DNA of 64,000 nucleotides from positions 113,770,001 to 113,834,000 of the forward strand of contig OX597823.1 in assembly GCA_951406725.2 (NCBI GenBank), read 5' to 3'. Of the stretch, positions 2,957 to 62,274 are shown in pieces (position 1 is the stretch's first letter; every line of letters begins with the position of its first letter). Under the pieces are notes generated by a model. It did not search any database, was not told the origin of the DNA, and was given only the letters and a program-made list of their open reading frames with translations. This stretch comes from Octopus vulgaris (Eukaryota). The position numbers and the translations under genes are program-made.

Positions 2957-3714
2957 TACACACACACACACACATACACATATATAGTTTCAGATGTTTG
3001 TGCGTGCATGTATTTGACGCATATATGTGTTTTATGCCTACACACCTCACTCGTATATAACAAGTTCTGAAACATTTCTTTACAAAAAGATGAAGAATTA
3101 TATTCTAAATTTGATGCTTAATTCCTTTCCTTCTTCTAACTTTCCTCTCCTTCACCCCCCCCCCCTTCTGTCTATTCATCATTCCTTTTCATTCCTCTCT
3201 TCTCTCTTCCACTTCTCGTTTCTTATTCTTCTCGTAATATTCTCACTATTATTGCTTTCTGCACCATTTTTTTTATGTATTTCACTATCTTTCACTTTTC
3301 TGAGATGCGTTGGATGTATTATTTATTTCTTTTTTATTTTATTTACAAGATGTAAGCTTCATTAAAATTTTAGACCCATTTCAACGGGAAAACAATATAT
3401 TTTATCGAAGCAATGCCAAAAAGACTTTAGAAGAAATTTTCAGATATGGCTTTTATTTTGCATGTAAGATGTGGATAAAAAAAAAAGAACGTAAATTAAT
3501 GCATATTACATTGTATATTTGTCAATAGCAAATGAAAATAAATCCTTGAAGTGAAAGCAAAAGTGATACAAAAATGTAACATAGAAAATAGTGTATGAAT
3601 GAATATTTTAAAAGATTCTTTCAGCAGTCTGTTTTCCTTTGTGCTAAAATAATGAAGATTGCAGCGGAATGCAGAATACATATAAAGAGTAATTCACACG
3701 ACAAACCTTTTTCC

Positions 3715-49717: not shown

Positions 49718-49718
<1 letters not shown>

Positions 49719-52700
49719 GAAAAAACGAAAAAACGAAGAGAGGATTGAAAGAGTTAGTATAAGTGATAGGCAAAGTGAAATACGCCCTGAACCAATCATA
49801 AACACTAAGACAGATGAGCATCAAATAGATAAAGAAAGTCATACAAATATTGACCCAACAGAACTACATGAGCTAAAAAATCAAATCATGATTGAATGGC
49901 TGAAAATTAAAGAAACCAGCATGGATGAGCGTGATACACTTCCTAAAATCCGCAACTCTAACCAAAACATGAAAATAATTGGTAAAATCCGGCTTGCACT
50001 TAAGGATATAATTTCAGTTAATGATGTTGATATCACAAACCTCAACCACCTATACTATGCATCCGCGAAAATCTCAACGATCCTATGTGGTGTAAAGATT
50101 AGAAAACGGCAACAGTCCCACAAAAAGCCTTCTTGGCAAGAGCGTCTGCAACAACAAATTAAAATATTTAGATCTGACATTGAATATTTGAAAAACCTTA
50201 AGGCTCACAAGATTACCAAACCTACAAAAACCCAAAAATTACTGAAAAAATACAATATGAAAACTATACTTGATATTGATGCCACCATAGAAACCATCAA
50301 ACAAAAGGTATCTGCCAAAGCTGCCCGCATAGCGAGGTATGAAAAGCGTGTTAGATTTTTCAAGGACAACAACATGTTCAAAAATAACACCAAGAATTTT
50401 TACAGGAAGATAGGAAAAACAGCGTTTACTGCAGGGTCTGTACCATCAAAAGAAGAAGTGCAGAGATTTTGGAATAAAATCTGGGCAGAAGAAAAAACAC
50501 ACAACGAAAAGGCCCCCTGGATTGACAGAATATCTACAGAACTGGACCCCTTAGAAGAGCAAAAGTGGGAGGGTGTCAAGGTAGAAGATATAAGATCTGC
50601 TCTCAGGAGGTCAAGCAAATGGAAGTCTCCAGGAAAGGATAAAATTCCTAACTTCTGGCTGAATGCCTTCCCAGAGAGCCATGAACTGCTAACAGAACTG
50701 TACAATGATGTTTTGCAACACCCTAGTAGGATGCCTCCTTGGCTAGTTAATGGGTTAACATTCCTGCTTCCAAAAAGTGAAGAAACAAATGAACCAAAAA
50801 ACTATAGACCCATAACCTGCTTAACAACTATGTACAAAACACTAACATCTGTCCTGACGGAATATACCTATAGTTTTTTAACAGACAGCAGCATATTCCC
50901 TAATGAACAGAAAGGATGTAAACGTGGATCCTACGGCTGTAAAGACCAACTACTCATCAATAATATGATCTTAGAAGATTGTCACAAACGACACAAAAAC
51001 TTATCAATAGCCTGGATAGACTATAAAAAGGCTTTTGATAGCCTACCACATAGCTGGATTAGGAAATGCCTTGAAATGTATAAGATAGCACCAACTCTGC
51101 GAAACTTCTTGACTGTAAGTATGAGATCATGGAGAACCACACTAACTCTGAACAGTGACAGTGAATCCCTAAATGCTGGTGATGTAAAAATTTCGTGTGG
51201 CATTTTCCAGGGTGACTCACTGTCACCACTCCTCTTTTGTTTATCCTTAATACCTCTCTCAAAGCTGCTCAATGACGCGCAGTACGGGTATAAAATGTTT
51301 GATAAAAATATAAATCATCTCGTTTACATGGATGATTTAAAGCTTTTTGCAAAAAATGATCAACAACTCAAGGGCTTACTAGCGATAGTCAAACAATTCA
51401 GTGACGACATCAGAATGCAATTCGGCCTCGATAAATGTGCAAAGGCTACCTTTATCAAAGGAAAAATGACAGAAACATCTAACGTTAACCTTGACCAACA
51501 GAATGTCATAAAAGAACTAGACCCAGCGGAGAGCTACAAGTACCTAGGGATAATTGAAGGGAACGGAATAAGGCATTCAGAGATGAAGGAAAGGATCAGG
51601 AGAGAATGCTATCGAAGAGTGAGAGCAATACTCAAGACAGAGCTGAATGCAAGAAACAGGATCGAAGCAATCAATGCATTAGCTATACCAGTCGTGACTT
51701 ACAGTTTCAATATTGTTAACTGGTCAATTACTGAAATATGTCAGCTCGACAGAAAAATAAGGAAACTGTTGACAATGCATAGAATGCACCACCCTAAGGC
51801 AGATACAGAACGACTCTATCTGCCAAGAAAAGAGGGAGGCCGTGGTCTTTTGCAACTGGCAATAACAATGAAGATTGCTACAATTGGCCTAGACACCTAC
51901 CTGAAAAACTCTGAGGACTGGATGCTAAAACTTGTCTCAAAACATGAAAACAAGAAAGCATCATACTCAGTCACAAAACAGGCAAAGGAATATCTAAGTG
52001 AATTCCGAATACAACCAATTTCGGAATTAGAGATAGATATACAAGAAACAAGCACAGAAAAAGCTAGGCGCATGAAAACCCGTGCCAAAACTGCGGCCTT
52101 AGATATTCTGAATAATAAATGGCAAGAAAAACCTCTCTATGGCAAATACCCAAAGAGAGCGAATAATGCAGATATCGACAAAGCCCTGACCCATCAATGG
52201 CTAATGGCCTCTGGCTTAAAATCTGAAACAGAGGGGTTTATCATAGCAGCTCAAGATCAATGCCTACCAACAAGAAACTACCAGGCCAACATATTAAAGA
52301 TCAGAAGCAGTCCAACGTGTCGTGTATGCAAGCAACAAAATGAAACCATTGACCATGTGGTCTCCAAGTGCAGTCTTCTAGCGCCTACAGAGTATCTCAA
52401 CAGGCACGATAGAGCTGCACAATATATTCACTGGGTAATCTGTAAAAACCTGGATTTGCCCCATGAAAAAAACTGGTGGGAACACAAACCACCCCCAGTG
52501 CTTGAAAATGACCACATCTCACTCCTCTGGAACTTCACCATTCAAACTGACAGGAAGATAGATGCAAATAGGCCAGACATCATATTGAAAAACTTCAAAC
52601 AAAGAACATGCCTCCTCATTGATATGACTGTCCCAATCGATATAAACGTATCTGTCAAGACCTACCAAAAACTGAGCAAATATAAAGATCTTGAAATAGA

Positions 52701-53107
52701 AATCAGCAAAATGTGGAAGCTGAAGACTAAAACAATACCTGTTGTCATAGGTGCCCTGGGAATGATAGCAAAAGGGGCTGATAGCTACCTAACTCAGATA
52801 CCAGGAAACCCAAAAATGGCAGAAGTTCAAAAGATAGTGCTCATGGGAACTGCTCATATCCTACGCAAAATACTCTCTATGTAATCTCAAGGTTTAAAAC
52901 AAACATAATTTTCGGTTTAAAAAAAAAAAAAAAAAAAAAAAACCTTTTTTTTTTTTTAGACATTCATTAGTACAACATCCCCACCCCCCAAATATATGGC
53001 ACACTAGGCATAACAACAACATGAACTTCCAACCCTGTTGTCTCTTGAGGTCTCTGGGTGAGACTTGGAGCCAACTTCTACAAATATAAAGCAAAAGTCA
53101 AACATAG
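49718..53107 (+). mobile_element. R4/Dong-like RLE non-LTR retrotransposon, copy A (5'-truncated), inserted in (TAA)n
   Basis: Flanked by (TAA)n at about 49590-49717 and 53108-53218. Uninterrupted RT-RLE ORF to 52884, then a 3' UTR of about 220 bp. (TAA)n targeting is the known behaviour of Dong elements. Confidence 0.9.
49888..52884 (+). CDS. Reverse transcriptase + CCHC finger + restriction-like endonuclease of Dong-like copy A
   Basis: RT motifs KSPGKD, NYRPITCL, WIDYKKAFDSLPH, GIFQGDSLSP, YMDDLKL, YKYLG. CCHC finger CRVC...HVVSKC. RLE motifs RHD, NRPDII, LIDMTVP, KLSKY. The first internal ATG is 49888. The track's extension to 49486 is translated microsatellite, and the native N-terminus is missing. 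Confidence 0.9.
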   Translation: MIEWLKIKETSMDERDTLPKIRNSNQNMKIIGKIRLALKDIISVNDVDITNLNHLYYASAKISTILCGVKIRKRQQSHKKPSWQERLQQQIKIFRSDIEYLKNLKAHKITKPTKTQKLLKKYNMKTILDIDATIETIKQKVSAKAARIARYEKRVRFFKDNNMFKNNTKNFYRKIGKTAFTAGSVPSKEEVQRFWNKIWAEEKTHNEKAPWIDRISTELDPLEEQKWEGVKVEDIRSALRRSSKWKSPGKDKIPNFWLNAFPESHELLTELYNDVLQHPSRMPPWLVNGLTFLLPKSEETNEPKNYRPITCLTTMYKTLTSVLTEYTYSFLTDSSIFPNEQKGCKRGSYGCKDQLLINNMILEDCHKRHKNLSIAWIDYKKAFDSLPHSWIRKCLEMYKIAPTLRNFLTVSMRSWRTTLTLNSDSESLNAGDVKISCGIFQGDSLSPLLFCLSLIPLSKLLNDAQYGYKMFDKNINHLVYMDDLKLFAKNDQQLKGLLAIVKQFSDDIRMQFGLDKCAKATFIKGKMTETSNVNLDQQNVIKELDPAESYKYLGIIEGNGIRHSEMKERIRRECYRRVRAILKTELNARNRIEAINALAIPVVTYSFNIVNWSITEICQLDRKIRKLLTMHRMHHPKADTERLYLPRKEGGRGLLQLAITMKIATIGLDTYLKNSEDWMLKLVSKHENKKASYSVTKQAKEYLSEFRIQPISELEIDIQETSTEKARRMKTRAKTAALDILNNKWQEKPLYGKYPKRANNADIDKALTHQWLMASGLKSETEGFIIAAQDQCLPTRNYQANILKIRSSPTCRVCKQQNETIDHVVSKCSLLAPTEYLNRHDRAAQYIHWVICKNLDLPHEKNWWEHKPPPVLENDHISLLWNFTIQTDRKIDANRPDIILKNFKQRTCLLIDMTVPIDINVSVKTYQKLSKYKDLEIEISKMWKLKTKTIPVVIGALGMIAKGADSYLTQIPGNPKMAEVQKIVLMGTAHILRKILSM

Positions 53108-53205: not shown

Positions 53206-53416
53206 CAATAATAATAATCGAGAAGAGTATAAAGAAGTAATATACGCTTATTGCTATGCATTAGGTAGGCCATCTCAAGAGAGACACACCGCAAACTCTT
53301 ACAGTATATGGAGAACACGGAATCAAGACAGTAGGCCCTATTTGGACGAGAACAAATTAGCAAATGTGAGGAGAGATATCCTTAGAAATAACAGACTCAC
53401 AGACAGTGAAATAAGC

Positions 53417-55088
53417 GCTTGGGACGAGTATACGCTGGAACATTGTCAGATAGAAGTCGTGGGATTGAAATTATGAAACAGGCCGAGGCTGGGTTATCAG
53501 CGATTGATGTTTCGAAGTTACCAGGTAAATATAAAATTTGGTGCTTGCAGTTCGGCCTGTACCCGCGACTTGCGTGGCCACTTTTAATATACGAAGTAGC
53601 ATTGTCACGAGTTGAAAAGATCGAACAAAAATGTAATGTGTTCATTAGAAAGTGGCTAGGTCTACCTCGTATGTTGAACAGCTCAGCTCTTTATCGTAAA
53701 AGAGGTTCGTTGCAGTTACCAATAGCATCAATAGTCGAAATATATAAGTTGGGGAAGATACGGACGGTCATGATGCTGAGAGAATCGAAGGATATGGAAA
53801 TCAGGCGTAACCCACCAGAGGTGAAAACAGCCAGGAAGTGGAAAGCAGAAGCAGAAACTGACAACATCTTGTCTTCTCTTACACACAGAGATATGGTGGG
53901 AGCAACGCAGAACCATCGGAAAGGATTTGGTTTTGGCGCGGATCAGTTCAGACCGTTTGCAAGCATGATGCCGTTTGAACGCAGATCTGTTGTTAGCAAC
54001 AGCGTCAAAACAAGAGAAGCAGAGAGAAGAGAGCTTCATTTGATCCGATGTGTTCATCAAGGTCAGATGACGAGATGGGAAGAACATGTTGTTGAGAGGA
54101 AGATAAGTTGGGATGAGATGTGGAAGTGGACAACATCTCGGCTGAGTTTCCTGATTCGTTCATCTTATGATGTTTTGCCATCACCTACGAATCTAGTAAG
54201 ATGGAACGTCTTAGAGAATGACGTCTGCAAATGTGGAAAAGTCGGTACACTAAAACATATTCTTTCCAACTGTTCGTTAGCATTGAACAGGTACACATGG
54301 AGGCACAACTTGGTCCTTAAGGTTATCTTCAATGCTATAAAGAATCAAATTCATCTCAACAACACTGAGGAAAAATCGTTAAAAGTACCATCAAGAGAGT
54401 TCATTACCTTCGTGCGACCAGGTCAGCAGATCCGTTTCAAGAAGAAGACCAAGAAACTTCCTGAGAAAAATGAAAAGTGGAACGACTATTGGGAGGTAAC
54501 TGCAGATTTACCTGGGTGCCAGGTTTTCTTTCCCATCCCAGTTTCGAAAAAACCAGATATTTTGATGTGGTGTGAAAGAAAGAAAGTTTTAAATATAGTC
54601 GAGCTAACGGTTCCTCACGAAGATAATATGGACGCCGCTCGAGCTCGAAAATTAAACCGTTATGAAAACCTCCTCGAGGAATATGAAGACGCAGGCTGGA
54701 AAGCGGAACATTTTCCTATCGAAGTCGGATGTAGAGGGTTTGTAGGACACAGCGTGAGACGACTGTTGTTATCGTTAGGCCTAACTCATCGTAAAGTCAA
54801 TACCACCATGACTGATATCCAATCTACAGTGGAGAAGGCTAGCCACTGGATTTGGTTAAAAAGAGACGATGAGCGATGGCTAGAAGTATATTGAGTTCAT
54901 CATAACCAGCTGATCTAGCAAGCGGGGCCTCATATCAGTGAGGGGGCCGGTGCGCATTGATGCCGTCGAGAGGTAGGCCCCGAAACGGCGCGCATTCTCT
55001 CCTGATGACCCCATACACTTGCTAGCTTCCGATATACGGAGCTTTTAACTGGTAGCACTTGCATGTGCAAGTTGTTTGCAAGATATCT
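53417..55088 (+). mobile_element. HERO-like element copy 1, 5'-truncated, head-to-tail with copy 2
   Basis: Matches 57154-58826 at offset 3737/3738. I saw only two differences: G/T at 53462 vs 57199 (Gly/Val) and G5 vs G6 in the 3' UTR. It encodes the C-terminal 491 aa (53419-54894). Confidence 0.9.
54904..55072 (+). ncRNA. Structured 3' UTR of the HERO-like element with hammerhead-core motifs (second copy about 58641-58810)
   Basis: GCCGTC (54962-67) pairs with GAAACGGC (54982-89). GAGAG (54968-72) pairs with CTCTC (54997-55001), which is followed by CTGATGA (55002-08). GGGGCCT pairs with AGGCCCC, and CTAGCAAG with CTTGCTAG. Catalytic activity is not shown. Confidence 0.45.
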
Positions 55089-55116
55089 AAGACCTTGTGG
55101 TAGGTAACCACTGACA

Positions 55117-55212
55117 AACCGGAAAGACGGTTAGGCATCTTGGAAAGACAAGAGGACTGCTCGGAAAGACCAGCGGACAATAGGAAAGACTATCGACACC
55201 AGGAAAGACTGG
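55117..55212 (+). other. Array of five stem-loops with invariant GAAAGA loop in the HERO-like 5' leader
   Basis: AACCG-GAAAGA-CGGTT, TCTTG-GAAAGA-CAAGA, CTGCTCG-GAAAGA-CCAGCGG, ATAG-GAAAGA-CTAT and CCAG-GAAAGA-CTGG, read directly from the sequence. Confidence 0.85.
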
Positions 55213-58200
55213 CGGAGGCTACGGACTTACGATCCTCGCCTCTGTATTCTATTGTAACAGACATAACAGGAAAAGACAGCCCCATGATTGACCGAGAGGG
55301 GGGAGTCGAGAATCAATCAAACCCAGTCAGCACGGAAACGACCTTTGAAACGAACATGATTATTCATTCGAACAGCGGACGAAATGCAAACAACTTTGGA
55401 TGCAAGCTGTGCTATAGAACCTTTGCAACTGAGAGAGGCTTGAAGATACATCAGGGAAAGACTTGTGAGAAGAGGACAGAGCAGTGTGGATCGTCAGATC
55501 GTAAAACACGTGGCAAATCATCCCCGGACTCAAACCACAGCGGATCGATAAATGCTACAGCACAGAACTCTTCACGTGAAGAAACTACAAGTCATGACAC
55601 TGGTGCATCGGATAATACTCAGAGGAAACCGAGGGTTTTGTGGCCTGCTGCTAATGAGAAAGTAAAATATAAAGAGTTTGAAAACAAGGTTTGTCGGACT
55701 CTTTATAAAATGACAGGCTCTACAGTGGAAAAACTGGGAAAATTATCAAGCTCAATATACGATGTAGCAAGAGATTTATTTGGAATAAAAGAGAATATAC
55801 GACTAGAGAAAGGAAAGTGTGGACCAAGCAGGAGGATCAGAAAAATGCAGCAGTTGAGGAAGGAAAAGTCCGACTTAAGAAAGAGATGGAGATGTGCTGC
55901 ACTAGATGAGAAACCTGGCCTTGTGTTGCTGTATAACGATTTGAAGAGGAAATGTCGTTATGTGCAACGACATATTCGCCGATATGAGCGTCGAAAAGAA
56001 AGTAAAAGGACTCGAGGGCAGTTTGTGAAGGACCCGTACGGGTTTACTAAGAAGCTGTTCACTGAGCCGAAGAGTGGTACTTTATCATGCACTAAAGAAG
56101 AATTGGATGCTCATATCAAGGAAACCTACAGCGATCCGCACCGTAATCAGCCGCTGCCATCTCTACATGGGCTAAATCATCTCTCAGGACCTGATATCGA
56201 ATTCCAGATTGGGGACATCAGGGAGAGAGAGGTGAATGACTTCGTAAGAAAAGCTAGAGCGAAGAGTGCCCCAGGAGGTGATGGCGTCTCATATAAAGTT
56301 TACAAATACTGCAATCGTCTGCGAAAGAAGCTCTTCGTCCTAATCCGACAACTGTGGCGCGAGGAGACTATAGTAGAGGATTGGTGTAAGGCAGAAGGTA
56401 TATACCTGCCGAAAGAGGCCAATGCAAAGACCATAAAACAGTTTAGGCCGATATCCTTATTGAATGTGGAAGGCAAGATCTTTATGGGAATTCTGTCGAG
56501 GAGAACAGTGACATATTTACAGAGTAACGGATATGTTGATGAATCTGTTCAAAAGGCCGGAATCCCCGGGATCCCTGGATGCGTTGAACACTGTTTTTCG
56601 ATTTGGAAAGCGATTCAGGATGCCAAACAGAACAAGAAAAGTCTGAACGTGGTATGGCTCGACCTAGCTAACGCGTATGGTTCAGTGCCACACAAATTAC
56701 TAATAACAGCCATGGACCACTTCCACATTCCTGACAAAGTGATCAAAATAATGAGGATGTACTATGAAAGTTTCGAAATGAGGTTTACAACTGGAAGTTT
56801 TACAACAAATTGGCACCGATTGGAGGTTGGCATTGCTGCTGGCTGTACAATATCTGTCACGTGGTTTATCTTAGTCATGGAGTTGATTTTGAAAGGTGTA
56901 GATTTTTCGGAACAAATCGCCCATGTACAATCGCCTAAGAAAGCCTTCATGGATGACGTGACACTTCTAGCTACAGATAAACAAATCATGCAGAATGCCC
57001 TTTTGAGATTAGACGAACGTGTACGGTGGTCAAGGATGCGATTTAGAGCAAAAAAGTCGCGTAGTCTGACATTTGTTAAGGGAGTGCAGAAAGAATTTAA
57101 ATTTCGAATATCGGAAGAAAGCATTCCAACAGTCAAGGAAGAGCCCGTCAAGAGCTTGGGACGAGTATACGCTGGAACATTGTCAGATAGAAGTCGTGTG
57201 ATTGAAATTATGAAACAGGCCGAGGCTGGGTTATCAGCGATTGATGTTTCGAAGTTACCAGGTAAATATAAAATTTGGTGCTTGCAGTTCGGCCTGTACC
57301 CGCGACTTGCGTGGCCACTTTTAATATACGAAGTAGCATTGTCACGAGTTGAAAAGATCGAACAAAAATGTAATGTGTTCATTAGAAAGTGGCTAGGTCT
57401 ACCTCGTATGTTGAACAGCTCAGCTCTTTATCGTAAAAGAGGTTCGTTGCAGTTACCAATAGCATCAATAGTCGAAATATATAAGTTGGGGAAGATACGG
57501 ACGGTCATGATGCTGAGAGAATCGAAGGATATGGAAATCAGGCGTAACCCACCAGAGGTGAAAACAGCCAGGAAGTGGAAAGCAGAAGCAGAAACTGACA
57601 ACATCTTGTCTTCTCTTACACACAGAGATATGGTGGGAGCAACGCAGAACCATCGGAAAGGATTTGGTTTTGGCGCGGATCAGTTCAGACCGTTTGCAAG
57701 CATGATGCCGTTTGAACGCAGATCTGTTGTTAGCAACAGCGTCAAAACAAGAGAAGCAGAGAGAAGAGAGCTTCATTTGATCCGATGTGTTCATCAAGGT
57801 CAGATGACGAGATGGGAAGAACATGTTGTTGAGAGGAAGATAAGTTGGGATGAGATGTGGAAGTGGACAACATCTCGGCTGAGTTTCCTGATTCGTTCAT
57901 CTTATGATGTTTTGCCATCACCTACGAATCTAGTAAGATGGAACGTCTTAGAGAATGACGTCTGCAAATGTGGAAAAGTCGGTACACTAAAACATATTCT
58001 TTCCAACTGTTCGTTAGCATTGAACAGGTACACATGGAGGCACAACTTGGTCCTTAAGGTTATCTTCAATGCTATAAAGAATCAAATTCATCTCAACAAC
58101 ACTGAGGAAAAATCGTTAAAAGTACCATCAAGAGAGTTCATTACCTTCGTGCGACCAGGTCAGCAGATCCGTTTCAAGAAGAAGACCAAGAAACTTCCTG

Positions 58201-58631
58201 AGAAAAATGAAAAGTGGAACGACTATTGGGAGGTAACTGCAGATTTACCTGGGTGCCAGGTTTTCTTTCCCATCCCAGTTTCGAAAAAACCAGATATTTT
58301 GATGTGGTGTGAAAGAAAGAAAGTTTTAAATATAGTCGAGCTAACGGTTCCTCACGAAGATAATATGGACGCCGCTCGAGCTCGAAAATTAAACCGTTAT
58401 GAAAACCTCCTCGAGGAATATGAAGACGCAGGCTGGAAAGCGGAACATTTTCCTATCGAAGTCGGATGTAGAGGGTTTGTAGGACACAGCGTGAGACGAC
58501 TGTTGTTATCGTTAGGCCTAACTCATCGTAAAGTCAATACCACCATGACTGATATCCAATCTACAGTGGAGAAGGCTAGCCACTGGATTTGGTTAAAAAG
58601 AGACGATGAGCGATGGCTAGAAGTATATTGA
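55140..58631 (+). CDS. Zn-finger/RT/CCHC/RLE protein of the HERO-like element (1163 aa from TTG; first ATG 55284)
   Basis: CKLCYRTFATERGLKIHQGKTC zinc finger. RT motifs SAPGGDGV, FRPISLLNVEGKIF, WLDLANAYGSVPH, AFMDDVT. CKC...HILSNC. RLE motifs WRHN, KPDIL, VELTVP, ARKLNRY, PIEVGCRG. No stops. Confidence 0.9.
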   Translation: MERQEDCSERPADNRKDYRHQERLAEATDLRSSPLYSIVTDITGKDSPMIDREGGVENQSNPVSTETTFETNMIIHSNSGRNANNFGCKLCYRTFATERGLKIHQGKTCEKRTEQCGSSDRKTRGKSSPDSNHSGSINATAQNSSREETTSHDTGASDNTQRKPRVLWPAANEKVKYKEFENKVCRTLYKMTGSTVEKLGKLSSSIYDVARDLFGIKENIRLEKGKCGPSRRIRKMQQLRKEKSDLRKRWRCAALDEKPGLVLLYNDLKRKCRYVQRHIRRYERRKESKRTRGQFVKDPYGFTKKLFTEPKSGTLSCTKEELDAHIKETYSDPHRNQPLPSLHGLNHLSGPDIEFQIGDIREREVNDFVRKARAKSAPGGDGVSYKVYKYCNRLRKKLFVLIRQLWREETIVEDWCKAEGIYLPKEANAKTIKQFRPISLLNVEGKIFMGILSRRTVTYLQSNGYVDESVQKAGIPGIPGCVEHCFSIWKAIQDAKQNKKSLNVVWLDLANAYGSVPHKLLITAMDHFHIPDKVIKIMRMYYESFEMRFTTGSFTTNWHRLEVGIAAGCTISVTWFILVMELILKGVDFSEQIAHVQSPKKAFMDDVTLLATDKQIMQNALLRLDERVRWSRMRFRAKKSRSLTFVKGVQKEFKFRISEESIPTVKEEPVKSLGRVYAGTLSDRSRVIEIMKQAEAGLSAIDVSKLPGKYKIWCLQFGLYPRLAWPLLIYEVALSRVEKIEQKCNVFIRKWLGLPRMLNSSALYRKRGSLQLPIASIVEIYKLGKIRTVMMLRESKDMEIRRNPPEVKTARKWKAEAETDNILSSLTHRDMVGATQNHRKGFGFGADQFRPFASMMPFERRSVVSNSVKTREAERRELHLIRCVHQGQMTRWEEHVVERKISWDEMWKWTTSRLSFLIRSSYDVLPSPTNLVRWNVLENDVCKCGKVGTLKHILSNCSLALNRYTWRHNLVLKVIFNAIKNQIHLNNTEEKSLKVPSREFITFVRPGQQIRFKKKTKKLPEKNEKWNDYWEVTADLPGCQVFFPIPVSKKPDILMWCERKKVLNIVELTVPHEDNMDAARARKLNRYENLLEEYEDAGWKAEHFPIEVGCRGFVGHSVRRLLLSLGLTHRKVNTTMTDIQSTVEKASHWIWLKRDDERWLEVY

Positions 58632-58829
58632 GTTCATCATAACCAGCTGATCTAGCAAGCGGGGCCTCATATCAGTGAGGGGGGCCGGTGCGCATTGATG
58701 CCGTCGAGAGGTAGGCCCCGAAACGGCGCGCATTCTCTCCTGATGACCCCATACACTTGCTAGCTTCCGATATACGGAGCTTTTAACTGGTAGCACTTGC
58801 ATGTGCAAGTTGTTTGCAAGATATCTAAG

Positions 58830-61800
58830 ACACAAAGGAAATGAAGAATCAGATGAACAGTATAGCCCGCCACGAGGCTTAATTGAAAGACTGCCATCTG
58901 ACCAAAGTACGCAAAGGCTTGAAGATACAAGAAATTCTATTGTGCCTGTTAAGGATAGCCAGGAAAACGAAAAAACAACAGTAACTGAAGATCTCGCATT
59001 TGCTGAAGAACACAGAGAGTCTATGGCAGAAATGAGGCAGAAAATCCTGAATACGCTTGAAGTCGTAAGACATACAAGTATGAATGATAGAGAACCACTT
59101 CATAAACTCTCAAATACAAACCAAAATAAAAAACAAATCCAAATTGGCAACTATGTAACAAATGAAATAATACGAGAATTAAAACCTGATTTTACTGAGT
59201 TAAATGAAATTATTTACGCTTCTGCTAGGGCAATTGAAACCAGCTGTATGCCCCCGAAAAAACAAAGAAAACAAAACCTGGGAAGAAATCAAACCTGGAG
59301 AAGTAAAATTGAAAAAGAGATTGAATTTATGAGAGGGGAAATATCAATATTAAATGAACTAATATGTGGAAATGATGTAAGATCCAGAACAGGAAGAAAG
59401 ATGACGAGAAAATTTGGATCCTCACCAAGAGAAGAACTGATATCAATAAAAGAAACGCTGAAACAAAAAGTCCAAGCAAAAGCCCAAAGAATACGAAGAT
59501 TTGAGAAGAGAAACAAGTTTTACAAGCAAAATAAGCTGTTCACATCCAATGCCAAAAAATTCTACAGAGAAATAGGGAAGGAGAAAGTAACCGTTAAAGA
59601 CCCCCCTCCCAAGGAAGAAGTTAAAAACTTTTGGAAAAGGATTTGGAGTGACAAGAAGACGTACAACATAAATGCAGACTGGATTATACAAACTGAAGGA
59701 TCCTACCAAAATTTACAACAACAAGCATGGGAAGACATCACAATAGCAGACCTAAGAAAGGCACTCACAAAGGCCCATAATTGGAAATCCCCCGGTAAAG
59801 ATAAGGTGCCGAATTTCTGGCTCGCATCGCTCCCATGTGCACACGGTAAGCTAGTTCAGCTGCTCAATGGAATTATGAGAGACCCAAAGAAAACACCTGA
59901 ATGGTTAGCAAGTGGCATTACTTACCTACTCCCAAAGAATAACGAAACCAACCTTCCAAAAAACTATCGGCCTATAACCTGTCTATCCACCACGTATAAA
60001 ATCCTAACATCTATCCTGGCGGAGAAAACATATGCATTCATGGAGAAGAACGATATTTTCCCCATTGAACAAAAAGGGTGCCGCCGAGGCTCTTACGGAA
60101 GCAAAGATCAACTGCTAATCAATCGTATGATCCTTGAGAACTGTCACAACAAGCGCAGAAATATCAGCACCGCATGGATTGACTATAAAAAGGCCTTCGA
60201 CAGTATACTGCATCCATGGATCTTGAGATCGCTGGACATCTTCAAAATTTCCCCTGTGATTTCAAACTTCCTGAAGCACAATATGTCGTTGTGGAATACG
60301 AATCTCCAATTATACCACTCTAATGGAGTACTTGCCTCAGAAAATATAAACATCAACTGTGGAATTTTTCAAGGTGACTCACTTTCACCTTTAATATTCT
60401 GCATAGCCCTAATACCCCTTACAAGTGAATTAAACAGAACAGGGTATGGGTATAAAATTGCCAATAAAAAAATAAGCCATCTATTTTATATGGATGACTT
60501 AAAACTTTATGGTAAAGACAATAATGAACTCGAAGGGCTATTGCGCACCGTGAAAGCATTCAGCGATGACATCGGGATGGAGTTTGGACTTGAGAAGTGT
60601 GCCAAGGCCACTTTCCAGAAAGGGAAAGTGAAGAAAATTCAGTCGTGTTAGATGTTGACACAGTCATAAGAGAGCTTGAGCAAGAACAAACATACAAATA
60701 TTTAGGGATAAATGAAGGCTCTGTTATTCAGCATGCAAGCATGAAAGAGAAAATCAGGAATGAATGTTATAGGAGAGTTCGTGCAGTCCTGAAATCTGAA
60801 CTAAATGCACGTAACAAGGTGTTAGCTATAAATTCCTTAGCAGTTCCAGTTGTTACTTATAGCTACAATGTGTTGAACTGGAATATGAGTGAAGTAAAGA
60901 ATATGGATACGCAAGCTGCTGAGTTGTAATAGGATGCACCACCCAAAGGCAGACGTAGATCGCCTTTACCTTCCCAGAGCCCAAGGAGGTCGAGGCCTGA
61001 TCCAATTTGAACTAGCTTACAAAACAACCACAATTGGACTGGCCAAATATCTCGAAATATCGAATGACTGGATGCTGAAGCTCGTGGAAAATCACGAGAG
61101 ACGAAAGAAGATTCATTCTATCATAAAGGAAAGCAAAAAATTTGCTATTGATCTCGTGCAGGATACCCAAACTGAACAACCCGAGGGAAGTACGGCAACT
61201 ATTGTTGCAAAGAAGGTGAAAATGATGGCAATGAAAAAAGCGCACGAGCAATTGGCTGATAGGTGGGAGGAGAAACCTCTGCACGGCAAATATGTGACCC
61301 GCAGCAAACAAGCTGATGTTGACCAGAAGCAAACCCATCAGTGGCTACGGAGCTCAGGGATAAAAGCAGAGAGCGAAGGTTTCATCCTGGCTGCTCAAGA
61401 TCAAAGCCTATTAACCCGGAACTACCAGGCCAATGTGATGAAAAATGGAGCAGACCCAAAATGCCGATTCTGCAACGACATGATTGAAACAGTGGACCAC
61501 CTAATCTCTGGATGTAAAGTCTTAGCACCAGTGGAGTATAAATTAAGACATGACAGAGTTGGCCAATATCTCCACTGGCTAATAAGTCGGCATTACAATA
61601 TCAAAACTGCCGACAAGTGGTATAATCACCACCCTGAGGCTGTAACTGAAGGAGAAAATGTAACCATTCTGTGGGACTTTCCAGTACATACAGACCGAAC
61701 CATCAAGGCCAATAAACCAGATATTGTTGTGAAAGACCAAAACAATAAAGTTTGCTTATTGATCGACATTATCATCCCCTGTGATCATAATATCTCAGCG

Positions 61801-62028
61801 AAAGAGTTTGACAAGCTCAGAAAATATAAAGACCTACTCATTGAAATTGAGAAAATGTGGCATCTCAAGGCGGTTACAATACCAGTGATCGTAGGAGCAC
61901 TAGGAATGATCAAGAAGGGAACCGAAAATTATATGAGAATGATTCCTGGCTTACCATCCCTGCAAGAAGTGCAAAAGATTGTCTTAACTGGTACATCACA
62001 CGTATTGAGAAGAGCATTGTCGATGTGA
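58830..62028 (+). pseudogene. Frameshifted RT-RLE ORF of Dong-like copy B
   Basis: Three consecutive ORF pieces (58801-60651, 60597-60929, 60934-62028) are collinear with copy A. Motifs include GIFQGDSLSP, FYMDDLKL, CRFC...HLISGC, RHD and NKPDIV. Frameshifts lie near 60620-60650 and 60905-60930. Confidence 0.88.
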
Positions 62029-62199
62029 GAACTGTTGCTGCTCATGTATTTTAATTTAACTTTAAAAAAAAAAAAAAATGAACGAACTACTGAGTTTGGT
62101 TTAATGGCCTACCAATGTATACTATGAGTTTCTTCGCCCTAGGAGTCGGGAAGACACTCGGCAAGAAATGGAAGCAAATTTGAAAGAAGAAGAAAAAAA

Positions 62200-62274
<75 letters not shown>

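Follow-up and report, generated by a model that had tools for sequence, protein, structure and literature searches.

What maintains an array of short RNA hairpins inside a retrotransposon? The question is raised by a HERO-like element of Octopus vulgaris lying in a 64,000-nucleotide (nt) window of contig OX597823.1 (GenBank assembly GCA_951406725.2, positions 113,770,001 to 113,834,000, forward strand); the window is the whole stretch analyzed here, and its own numbering is used below. Five hairpins with the same loop and different stems, here called the comb, were first noticed in the letters of this stretch and taken for a selected multivalent RNA module at the 5' end of the element. Judged by comparison with related elements, the comb is a real, selected RNA module with an invariant loop on covarying stems. 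It belongs, with other modules, to a larger RNA control region located at the element's head-to-tail junction. Our preferred explanation, to which we give slightly less than even confidence, is that the comb docks the element's own protein and determines the point where reverse transcription begins on an RNA template predicted to be circular.

The hairpin comb and its conservation

The 8-mer G-GAAAGA-C was found at 55121, 55142, 55163, 55183 and 55202, each copy within the stem first reported for it, and has 7 matches in the window against 1.1 expected. The flanking hairpin at 55097–55111 (H0) and the stem at 55211–55240 were likewise present as described. Folded in context, hairpins 1, 2 and 5 had stem-pair probabilities mostly near 1 (0.79 for the outer pair of hairpin 5). 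Hairpin 3 formed but left its C.C mismatch unpaired, and folding was weak, with a pair probability of about 0.3, for hairpins 4 and H0. The 201-nt comb region as a whole gave a folding z of −2.3. At the hairpin 3 mismatch site, 45 family copies carry C-G in 16 cases and C.C in 17, and it is the older copies that pair. The comb can alternatively be parsed as contiguous hairpins with a single purine between them.

Relatives were surveyed in 72 metagenome loci, viral contigs (1 distant locus) and prokaryote assemblies (11 loci, L216 being informative). Down to 26% protein identity they carry 2–6 comb hairpins each. Eighteen leaders at 37–58% identity among the metagenome loci have 3–6 units; the number is two, of GA type, in the distant L130/L135/L136 group and four or five in L216, at 26%. 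A second family in the same genome (family B, about 50–58% protein identity) is laid out alike, its four hairpins having other stem sequences, and a comb is also present in a third family, which is decayed. The loop consensus is G-A-R-(N)-A-G-N in a set of 52 units whose first loop position and A-G positions were fixed by the search rule; GAAAGA itself occurs in 23/52. The loop is closed by G-C in 39/52 units, and unit spacing is 19–21 nt in 34/38 intervals. The linkers had been called unrelated, which does not hold, as a conserved GRC word stands 7–9 nt before the loop in 49/52 units. L216 is a distant restriction-like endonuclease (RLE) element in a prokaryote-labelled assembly, where it is probably a eukaryotic contaminant; its positions 1150–1260 and 1440–1580 (approximate) hold, in DNA, a type-SGC hammerhead of the plain form, together with a comb and a start at AUG.

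Covariation, which the original prediction had left to be checked, was assessed by an arm-shuffle test on all 33 G-C-closed loop words in anchored arrays, chosen regardless of stem. The words come from 13/20 leaders, since 5 had no anchor and 2 (L118, L119) were mis-anchored. The next pairs formed in 97/99 cases, 89 of them Watson-Crick, against 53 ± 4.5 pairs and a maximum of 72 in 10,000 shuffles of the 3' arms. Sixteen different 5' arms keep pairing. By this test the stems covary across relatives, which, with the retention of the comb in such distant elements, bears out the proposed multivalent module. Elsewhere in the contigs the loop word sat on a 4-pair stem in 7/37 cases versus 23/30 in leaders, a leader set that is partly mis-anchored. 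In family A, lineage-shared changes fell at 0/30 loop sites, 3/40 stem sites and 8/20 spacer sites, and, within the coding N-terminus, at 17/80 sites. Most relatives have in-frame stops in the array or just after it, and a coding role for the array was rejected. These stops and the 16 different paired arms agree with the original view that the array is neither a protein repeat nor a simple tandem duplication.

Rfam gave no relevant match for the array, the 3' untranslated region (UTR) or 12 relatives. A hepatitis delta virus (HDV)-like ribozyme at 55211–55250, or in the pseudoknot at 55280, was rejected by eye for want of P1.1, P4 and the conserved catalytic C. Five other genomic arrays of the 8-mer proved to be ordinary minisatellites or clusters due to chance. 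Minisatellites that contain the 8-mer and are unrelated to the comb stand at L061, L062, L064 and L065, and some of them can form hairpins.

Head-to-tail junction, predicted ribozyme and proposed start signals

The array does not mark a 5' end. It is joined to the element's own 3' end in the window and in 20/20 fetched array-bearing loci, which were chosen from hits that start close to the junction or at it. In this set the upstream piece measures 31–1981 nt, and in the window (53413–55094 versus 57150–58831) it shows 3 differences in 1673 columns. Among 30 first-search loci, 24 extend past the first hairpin on its upstream side and there enter 3' sequence of the element itself, for only 14 nt in L023, and 6 are truncated inside the array. 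An array at the 5' terminus had been suggested to assist 5' integration; no examined copy begins at the first hairpin, and 5' ends run through it and beyond. The junction is invariant, with 24 matches and no indel in aligned copies. Locus-private variants stand in both halves in 29 cases (7/19 loci), versus 190 in one half, which indicates that both halves derive from one source lineage. A 20-nt word of the 3' UTR has 1084 exact genome copies versus 24 head-to-tail junctions, and most copies are therefore short 3' fragments. Contigs from runs that may or may not be RNA span both junction and array and are uninformative on expression or circles.

The 3' ends of insertions are sharply placed relative to the comb. 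For family A (30 unselected loci), terminal 3' ends fell in a 12-nt window 8–19 nt before H0 in 29/29, a count that probably includes one duplicated insertion as two rows. Eight terminal copies extend 4–7 nt further, to the foot of H0, and none enters the first hairpin. These 8 copies at the junction compare with 18 for 23 comparable 4-mers together. Family B insertions end just before unit 1, and 3' ends lie 6–16 nt before the first hairpin or unit in L118, L119, L102/L116 against L103, L130 and L136/L137. Across lineages the comb-to-ribozyme distance varies from about 80 to 470 nt, and the distance from the comb to the open reading frame (ORF) varies as well. In L130 the ribozyme lies about 470 nt upstream of the comb, and at least 165 nt separate the comb from the downstream opening of the ORF frame, so here the comb follows the putative reverse-transcription start rather than the ribozyme or the start codon. 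The start module also differs while the comb stays, being an anticodon mimic, a long leader in L130/135/136 or a plain AUG in L216. Variable ribozyme distance and differing start modules thus leave the reverse-transcription start as the comb's most constant neighbor. The comb is the only module found at this position in all lineages with a mapped end.

Upstream of the comb, the 3' UTR motif runs in the order cleavage triplet, GAAA, CUGAUGA, the strand order of type-SGC hammerheads. CUGANGA, GAAA, an NUH site and stems I and III were present in 35 parsed loci, of which three pairs of rows are near-duplicates and for which the parse itself selects for pairing. The cleavage triplets were GUC (12), GUA (12), GUU (9) and AUA (2), with 20 different strands for stem I and 14 for stem III. 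In 34/35 parses the base after CUGANGA is unable to pair with the base before GAAA, and stem II does not directly follow CUGANGA. Instead, a strand upstream of the whole motif, with 17 different sequences, pairs before GAAA. A helix of 4–8 pairs links the ends of stems I and II in 30/35 parses. This rewired motif was found in 27/43 relatives with at least 250 nt after the ORF and on 0/84 reverse strands. L216 has a plain type-SGC motif with block C intact by eye, whereas block C is opened in the window lineage. The plain form suggests that the window motif is an SGC ribozyme opened between A9 and G10.1, and thus a candidate further permutation of the type-SGC hammerhead. A one-base insertion at the A9/G10.1 site is tolerated in a viroid hammerhead.

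The predicted ribozyme likely cleaves, because its core is conserved and covarying. Of 21 array-bearing insertions, 16 cross the predicted cut site and are thus long enough to hold both ribozymes; none has its 5' end within 20 nt of that site. A search among copies showed no accumulation of 5' ends at either the cut site or the first hairpin. A small hairpin after the ribozyme (window 55025–55045, approximate) is kept in L103, L104, L116, L132, L150 and family B, within the closer group only (about 50% identity or more).

The stem at 55211–55240 had been described as a further flanking hairpin. The hairpin stands, and it contains an anticodon-like loop (55226–55232) that offers a better explanation of a non-AUG start. 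The anticodon triplet pairs with a codon 25–27 nt before the downstream pseudoknot in 12/14 automatically scored leaders, under a pairing rule made after the data were seen, and at most 1 match occurred at any other offset from 15 to 39. Scored by eye, 20 leaders comprised 16 with Watson-Crick pairing, 1 with a wobble, 2 with one mismatch and 1 without such a loop. The common pair AGC:GCU becomes UAC:GUA in the window, UGC:GCA in family B and L115, and AGU:ACU in L117 and L119, double changes that fall on three separate branches of the tree. The codon mimic is GTA in 42/45 family copies and in frame with the ORF in intact copies, and a Thr codon almost always comes next. From the last comb loop to the anticodon loop the distance is fixed at 22–29 nt in the core lineage. 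Such pairing tentatively fits 2/3 by eye in the distant L130/135/136 group. The S2 strands of the pseudoknot are compensatory by eye in family B and many relatives.

Two start signals first pointed out, the ATG at 55284 and the frame open from 55104, are not conserved, with ATG in 18/45 and ACG in 22/45 family copies. No AUG is conserved in the leaders of family copies and relatives. Non-AUG initiation close by, also proposed originally, is nevertheless supported by the in-frame codon that the anticodon-like loop pairs with. The loop likely works like pseudoknot I (PKI) of the intergenic region (IGR) internal ribosome entry site (IRES). It matches PKI anatomy, but neither an Rfam IRES match nor a PKII/PKIII-like fold was found for the array and 12 relatives, so we class it by sequence as PKI-like rather than as a type 6 member. 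The comb stands where PKII/PKIII would be. Two side observations concern these leaders. The G run at 55298–55303 in the pseudoknot is one base shorter in 7/11 of the youngest copies and 2/34 older ones, shifting the frame from the predicted start; this may be an assembly homopolymer error or a defective variant spread in trans. At approximately 270–290 in L130, 375–395 in L135 and 290–310 in L136, a structured leader hairpin has a UAUUUA loop on covarying stems, reminiscent of the stem-loop IV (SLIV) loop of the IGR IRES and with no Rfam match.

A tentative role for the comb and the alternatives

We hypothesize the following cycle. A partial-tandem insertion bears two rewired hammerheads one unit apart, a layout that is observed, and cleavage at both is predicted to release a 3738-nt monomer that would be ligated into a circle. 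The uncapped RNA would be translated from a non-AUG codon set by the pairing of the anticodon-like loop with the codon at 55254; covariation was seen for the pairing, and initiation there is presumed from it. Because a circle lacks a 3' end, reverse transcription on it needs an internal start mark. The protein, bound to the comb, would put the cut target DNA on the single-stranded 5–20 nt 5' of the comb's first helix; the coincidence of position is observed and the binding is proposed to account for it. Synthesis would mostly stop early, and roughly 2% of copies would go full circle through the junction to give a partial tandem with two ribozymes, in keeping with the observed counts and layout. 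Most long copies cross the cut site of a ribozyme that is nevertheless conserved, and a ligated circle is the simplest explanation of this.

Several points weigh against this explanation. Cleavage, circle and protein binding are all predictions from sequence. The arm-shuffle test makes no correction for kinship of the sequences, 16/43 relatives gave no hammerhead parse, and the young subfamily tolerates the C.C mismatch in hairpin 3. A single tandem source locus, transcribed by long read-through, would likewise be expected to put private variants into both halves. Slippage that repeated the last bases of the element could account for four of the 8 run-on ends, and a comb beside the 3' end would also be expected if the comb were simply the first module of the unit. 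That the loop is nearly fixed down to 26% protein identity is easier to reconcile with a conserved partner in the host than with a protein of the element that evolves fast, and the fixed spacing to the anticodon loop and the AUG directly after the comb in L216 fit a role in translation.

The last two points lead to the strongest alternative, which we regard as unlikely but not by a wide measure: the comb would recruit ribosomes or initiation factors as a domain of a cap-independent start signal resembling the IGR IRES, in the role of PKII/PKIII, with the anticodon loop and codon (55226–55256) setting the frame. Besides the spacing, the L216 start and the host-like constancy of the loop, this would account for the covariation and in-frame position of the anticodon:codon pair and the lack of a conserved AUG, and RNA cut by the ribozyme would have no cap. 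It is at odds with the L130/L135/L136 group, where a structured leader of at least 165 nt parts the GA-loop hairpins from the ORF while the hairpins still flank the 3' end, and with the missing PKII/PKIII-like fold and Rfam IRES match. The two roles may coexist in the comb.

A linear template is a good deal less probable. Here an uncleaved read-through multimer or end-to-end jumps would produce the tandems, and the comb would be a 5' protein-binding module like the R2 5' RNA, for second-strand steps or packaging of the ribonucleoprotein. End-to-end template jumps are known for the R2 reverse transcriptase (RT), and the shared private variants fit one tandem source locus equally. The invariant junction is, however, unlike the product of end-to-end jumps with ragged 3' ends, and the conserved, covarying ribozyme core likely cleaves. 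Young copies retain extensions of 1.7–2 kb, and none of the 40 fetched stretches held a source locus of two units. Partial tandems are nonetheless common in Penelope-like elements without a shown circle, according to the consulted portion of one study (10.1101/2021.04.23.441226).

Marginally more doubtful again is binding of a host RNA-binding protein, or N6-methyladenosine (m6A) marking at DRACH words in the linkers and loop ends, either of which would aid stability, export or translation of the uncapped RNA. The comb has 8 DRACH words in 104 nt versus 65 in 3298 nt of ORF, and m6A-driven translation of circular RNA is known. Yet the methylatable A is replaced by G in 6/49 linkers found, the last loop base varies in 12/52 units, and DRACH methylation needs no rigid stems or spacing. 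It is scarcely credible that the comb is a minisatellite evolving neutrally, a protein repeat or, at the level of DNA, an array of transcription-factor sites: ordinary tandem repeats with the same 8-mer do occur in the genome, but their units are identical, whereas the comb keeps its 19–21 nt spacing and pairs with 16 different 5' arms, and in-frame stops in relatives and the covariation already contradict such readings.

The element, its known counterparts and wider meaning

Domain order, target behavior and host range are consistent with a HERO-like element, an assignment made from descriptions with a tree that holds relatives other than the named HERO references. The ORF is intact and single, with RT followed by a PD-(D/E)xK-type endonuclease as in HERO; the endonuclease motif was read from sequence, and Pfam names the RT alone. 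Top solved-structure matches of the protein are R2 and LINE-1 proteins, and the tree groups it with lancelet, fish and sea-hare proteins. Insertion flanks varied, many being TA-rich and mostly without target duplication; insertion is mostly not site-specific, as in the HERO clade, some members of which sit in microsatellites. Two different R4/Dong-like elements bounded by TAA microsatellites lie at 49718–53100, 53220–53412 and 58828–62200. The HERO-like insertion interrupts the second, which we take to be R4/Dong-like from its protein. Array-bearing mini-elements of about 1.1–1.4 kb (L179, L183, L185, L190, L192, L026, L072, L079) were also seen; many array-bearing copies are of this kind, with independent internal deletions that share similar break regions and join unit positions of about 670–840 to 3100–3420. 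Feature coordinates are collected in Table 1.

Table 1. Features of the HERO-like insertion and its control region (window positions)
Feature	Position	Strand	Remarks
HERO-like insertion	53413–58831		1.45-mer partial tandem of one element
Upstream partial copy, 3' 1.68 kb of element	53413–55094	+	99.8% identical to 57150–58831
Rewired hammerhead motif (predicted), upstream copy	54922–55012	+	stem II 5' strand 54943–48; predicted cut after 54967; GAAA 54982–85; CUGAUGA 55002–08
Inferred reverse-transcription start window	55078–55096	+	counterpart of insertion 3' ends 58816–58827, rarely 4–7 nt further
H0, first comb hairpin, variable loop	55097–55111	+	similar hairpin, altered loop, in family B and most relatives
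Comb hairpin 1	55117–55132	+	loop 55122–27
Comb hairpin 2	55138–55153	+	loop 55143–48
Comb hairpin 3	55157–55176	+	loop 55164–69; C.C mismatch is a recent change
Comb hairpin 4	55180–55193	+	loop 55184–89; weak stem; A-U/G.U variation among copies
Comb hairpin 5	55199–55212	+	loop 55203–08
Anticodon-stem-loop mimic	55223–55235	+	7-nt loop 55226–32; 'anticodon' 55228–30
Paired codon mimic GTA and predicted first decoded codon ACA	55254–55259	+	in frame with ORF
Single ORF: zinc finger, reverse transcriptase, CCHC, restriction-like endonuclease	55254–58631	+	
H-type pseudoknot, inner GNRA hairpin	55280–55319	+	26 nt after codon mimic, inside coding region
Rewired hammerhead (predicted), second copy	58659–58750	+	predicted cut after 58705; cut-to-cut unit 3738 nt
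Insertion 3' end	58816–58831	+	window copy runs 4 nt into junction sequence

Repeated protein-binding hairpin arrays are known from lambda boxB, CsrB/CsrA sites and the MAT2A 3'UTR hairpins. Like the comb, they repeat a fixed loop on exchangeable stems; unlike them, as we take their consensus loops to be, the comb uses GAR(N)AGN, and its hairpins are contiguous, one purine apart. In R2 the ribozyme generates the 5' terminus of a template that is linear, whereas 5' ends of the window family pass through the cut site. The R2 5' RNA, with its HDV-like ribozyme and Met-independent translation, belongs to a sister group and comprises ribozyme-processed uncapped RNA with no obligate AUG, as predicted for the window element; the consulted part of that report states how R2-group proteins start without methionine to be unknown (PMC13580325). 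HERO elements share the single ORF, RT then RLE, the lack of a fixed target site, and relatives in lancelet, fish and sea hare, and the consulted portions of these accounts make no mention of the ribozymes, partial tandems, hairpin arrays or start signals of the window element (PMC4640811, PMC3636483, PMC9004415).

The type-SGC hammerhead HRIMA-1 (PMC10085705) has in common with the window motif the order cleavage site, GAAA, CUGAnGA, a short link between stems I and II, and a helix joining the far ends of these stems, as far as the consulted part of that study goes. In the window motif the stem II 5' strand is moved to the front and block C is opened between A9 and G10.1. That same part of the study treats block C as uninterruptible (Eckert et al. 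2023, PMC10085705) and reports no type-SGC RNA in genomes of known organisms; the window motif, unlike those finds, sits in a retrotransposon. With PKI of the dicistrovirus IGR IRES (type 6) the leader shares an anticodon-shaped loop that forms 3 pairs, or up to 5, with a codon lying downstream in the frame of a Met-less ORF, and three anticodon:codon pairs suffice in cricket paralysis virus (CrPV) PKI, according to the portions consulted (PMC3517527, PMC12221177). It differs in having no PKII/PKIII, the comb upstream instead, an extra pseudoknot 26 nt downstream and a chromosomal retroelement as host. For IGR-type IRESs in elements lacking long terminal repeats (non-LTR elements), the consulted part of one paper offers speculation only (PMC3894237).

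Penelope-like elements and retrozymes also form partial tandems with hammerheads in the repeated part, and circular RNAs are reported for retrozymes; in the portions consulted, Penelope-like elements have another RT class and endonuclease than the window element, and a comb and anticodon mimic are not described there (10.1101/2021.04.23.441226, 10.64898/2026.07.22.740005). The window hammerhead is neither type I nor type III, unlike theirs. Like retrozymes, the window element has two ribozymes around one unit, but retrozymes are non-coding and it is autonomous, with an intact RT-endonuclease ORF. In the literature and the PMC10085705 supplement, searched by keywords, with Repbase Reports, most subscription papers and bioRxiv supplements outside the scope, no array, hammerhead or IRES is described for HERO/RLE elements. 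Partial-tandem hammerheads, type-SGC ribozymes, viral PKI and binding-hairpin arrays each have a precedent outside these elements.

The leader yields a precise, mutable prediction, namely that three base pairs set the frame, and the comb is a small, repeated, easily assayed motif without an Rfam family. A natural hammerhead opened between A9 and G10.1 would break a stated assumption on possible permutations. In its widest form, which is possible but more doubtful than the comb's proposed docking role, the picture is of an ancient autonomous LINE-type lineage that replicates via circular RNA, with an undescribed hammerhead permutation, a non-AUG start by transfer RNA mimicry, the comb as an internal start of target-primed reverse transcription, and synthesis rolling past one unit to rebuild two ribozymes. 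If true, target-primed reverse transcription would have another mode, in which structure defines an internal start and the template is circular. Such a mode would also bear on the origin of retrozymes and of Penelope-type partial tandems, and on all-RNA gene-insertion tools that use these proteins.

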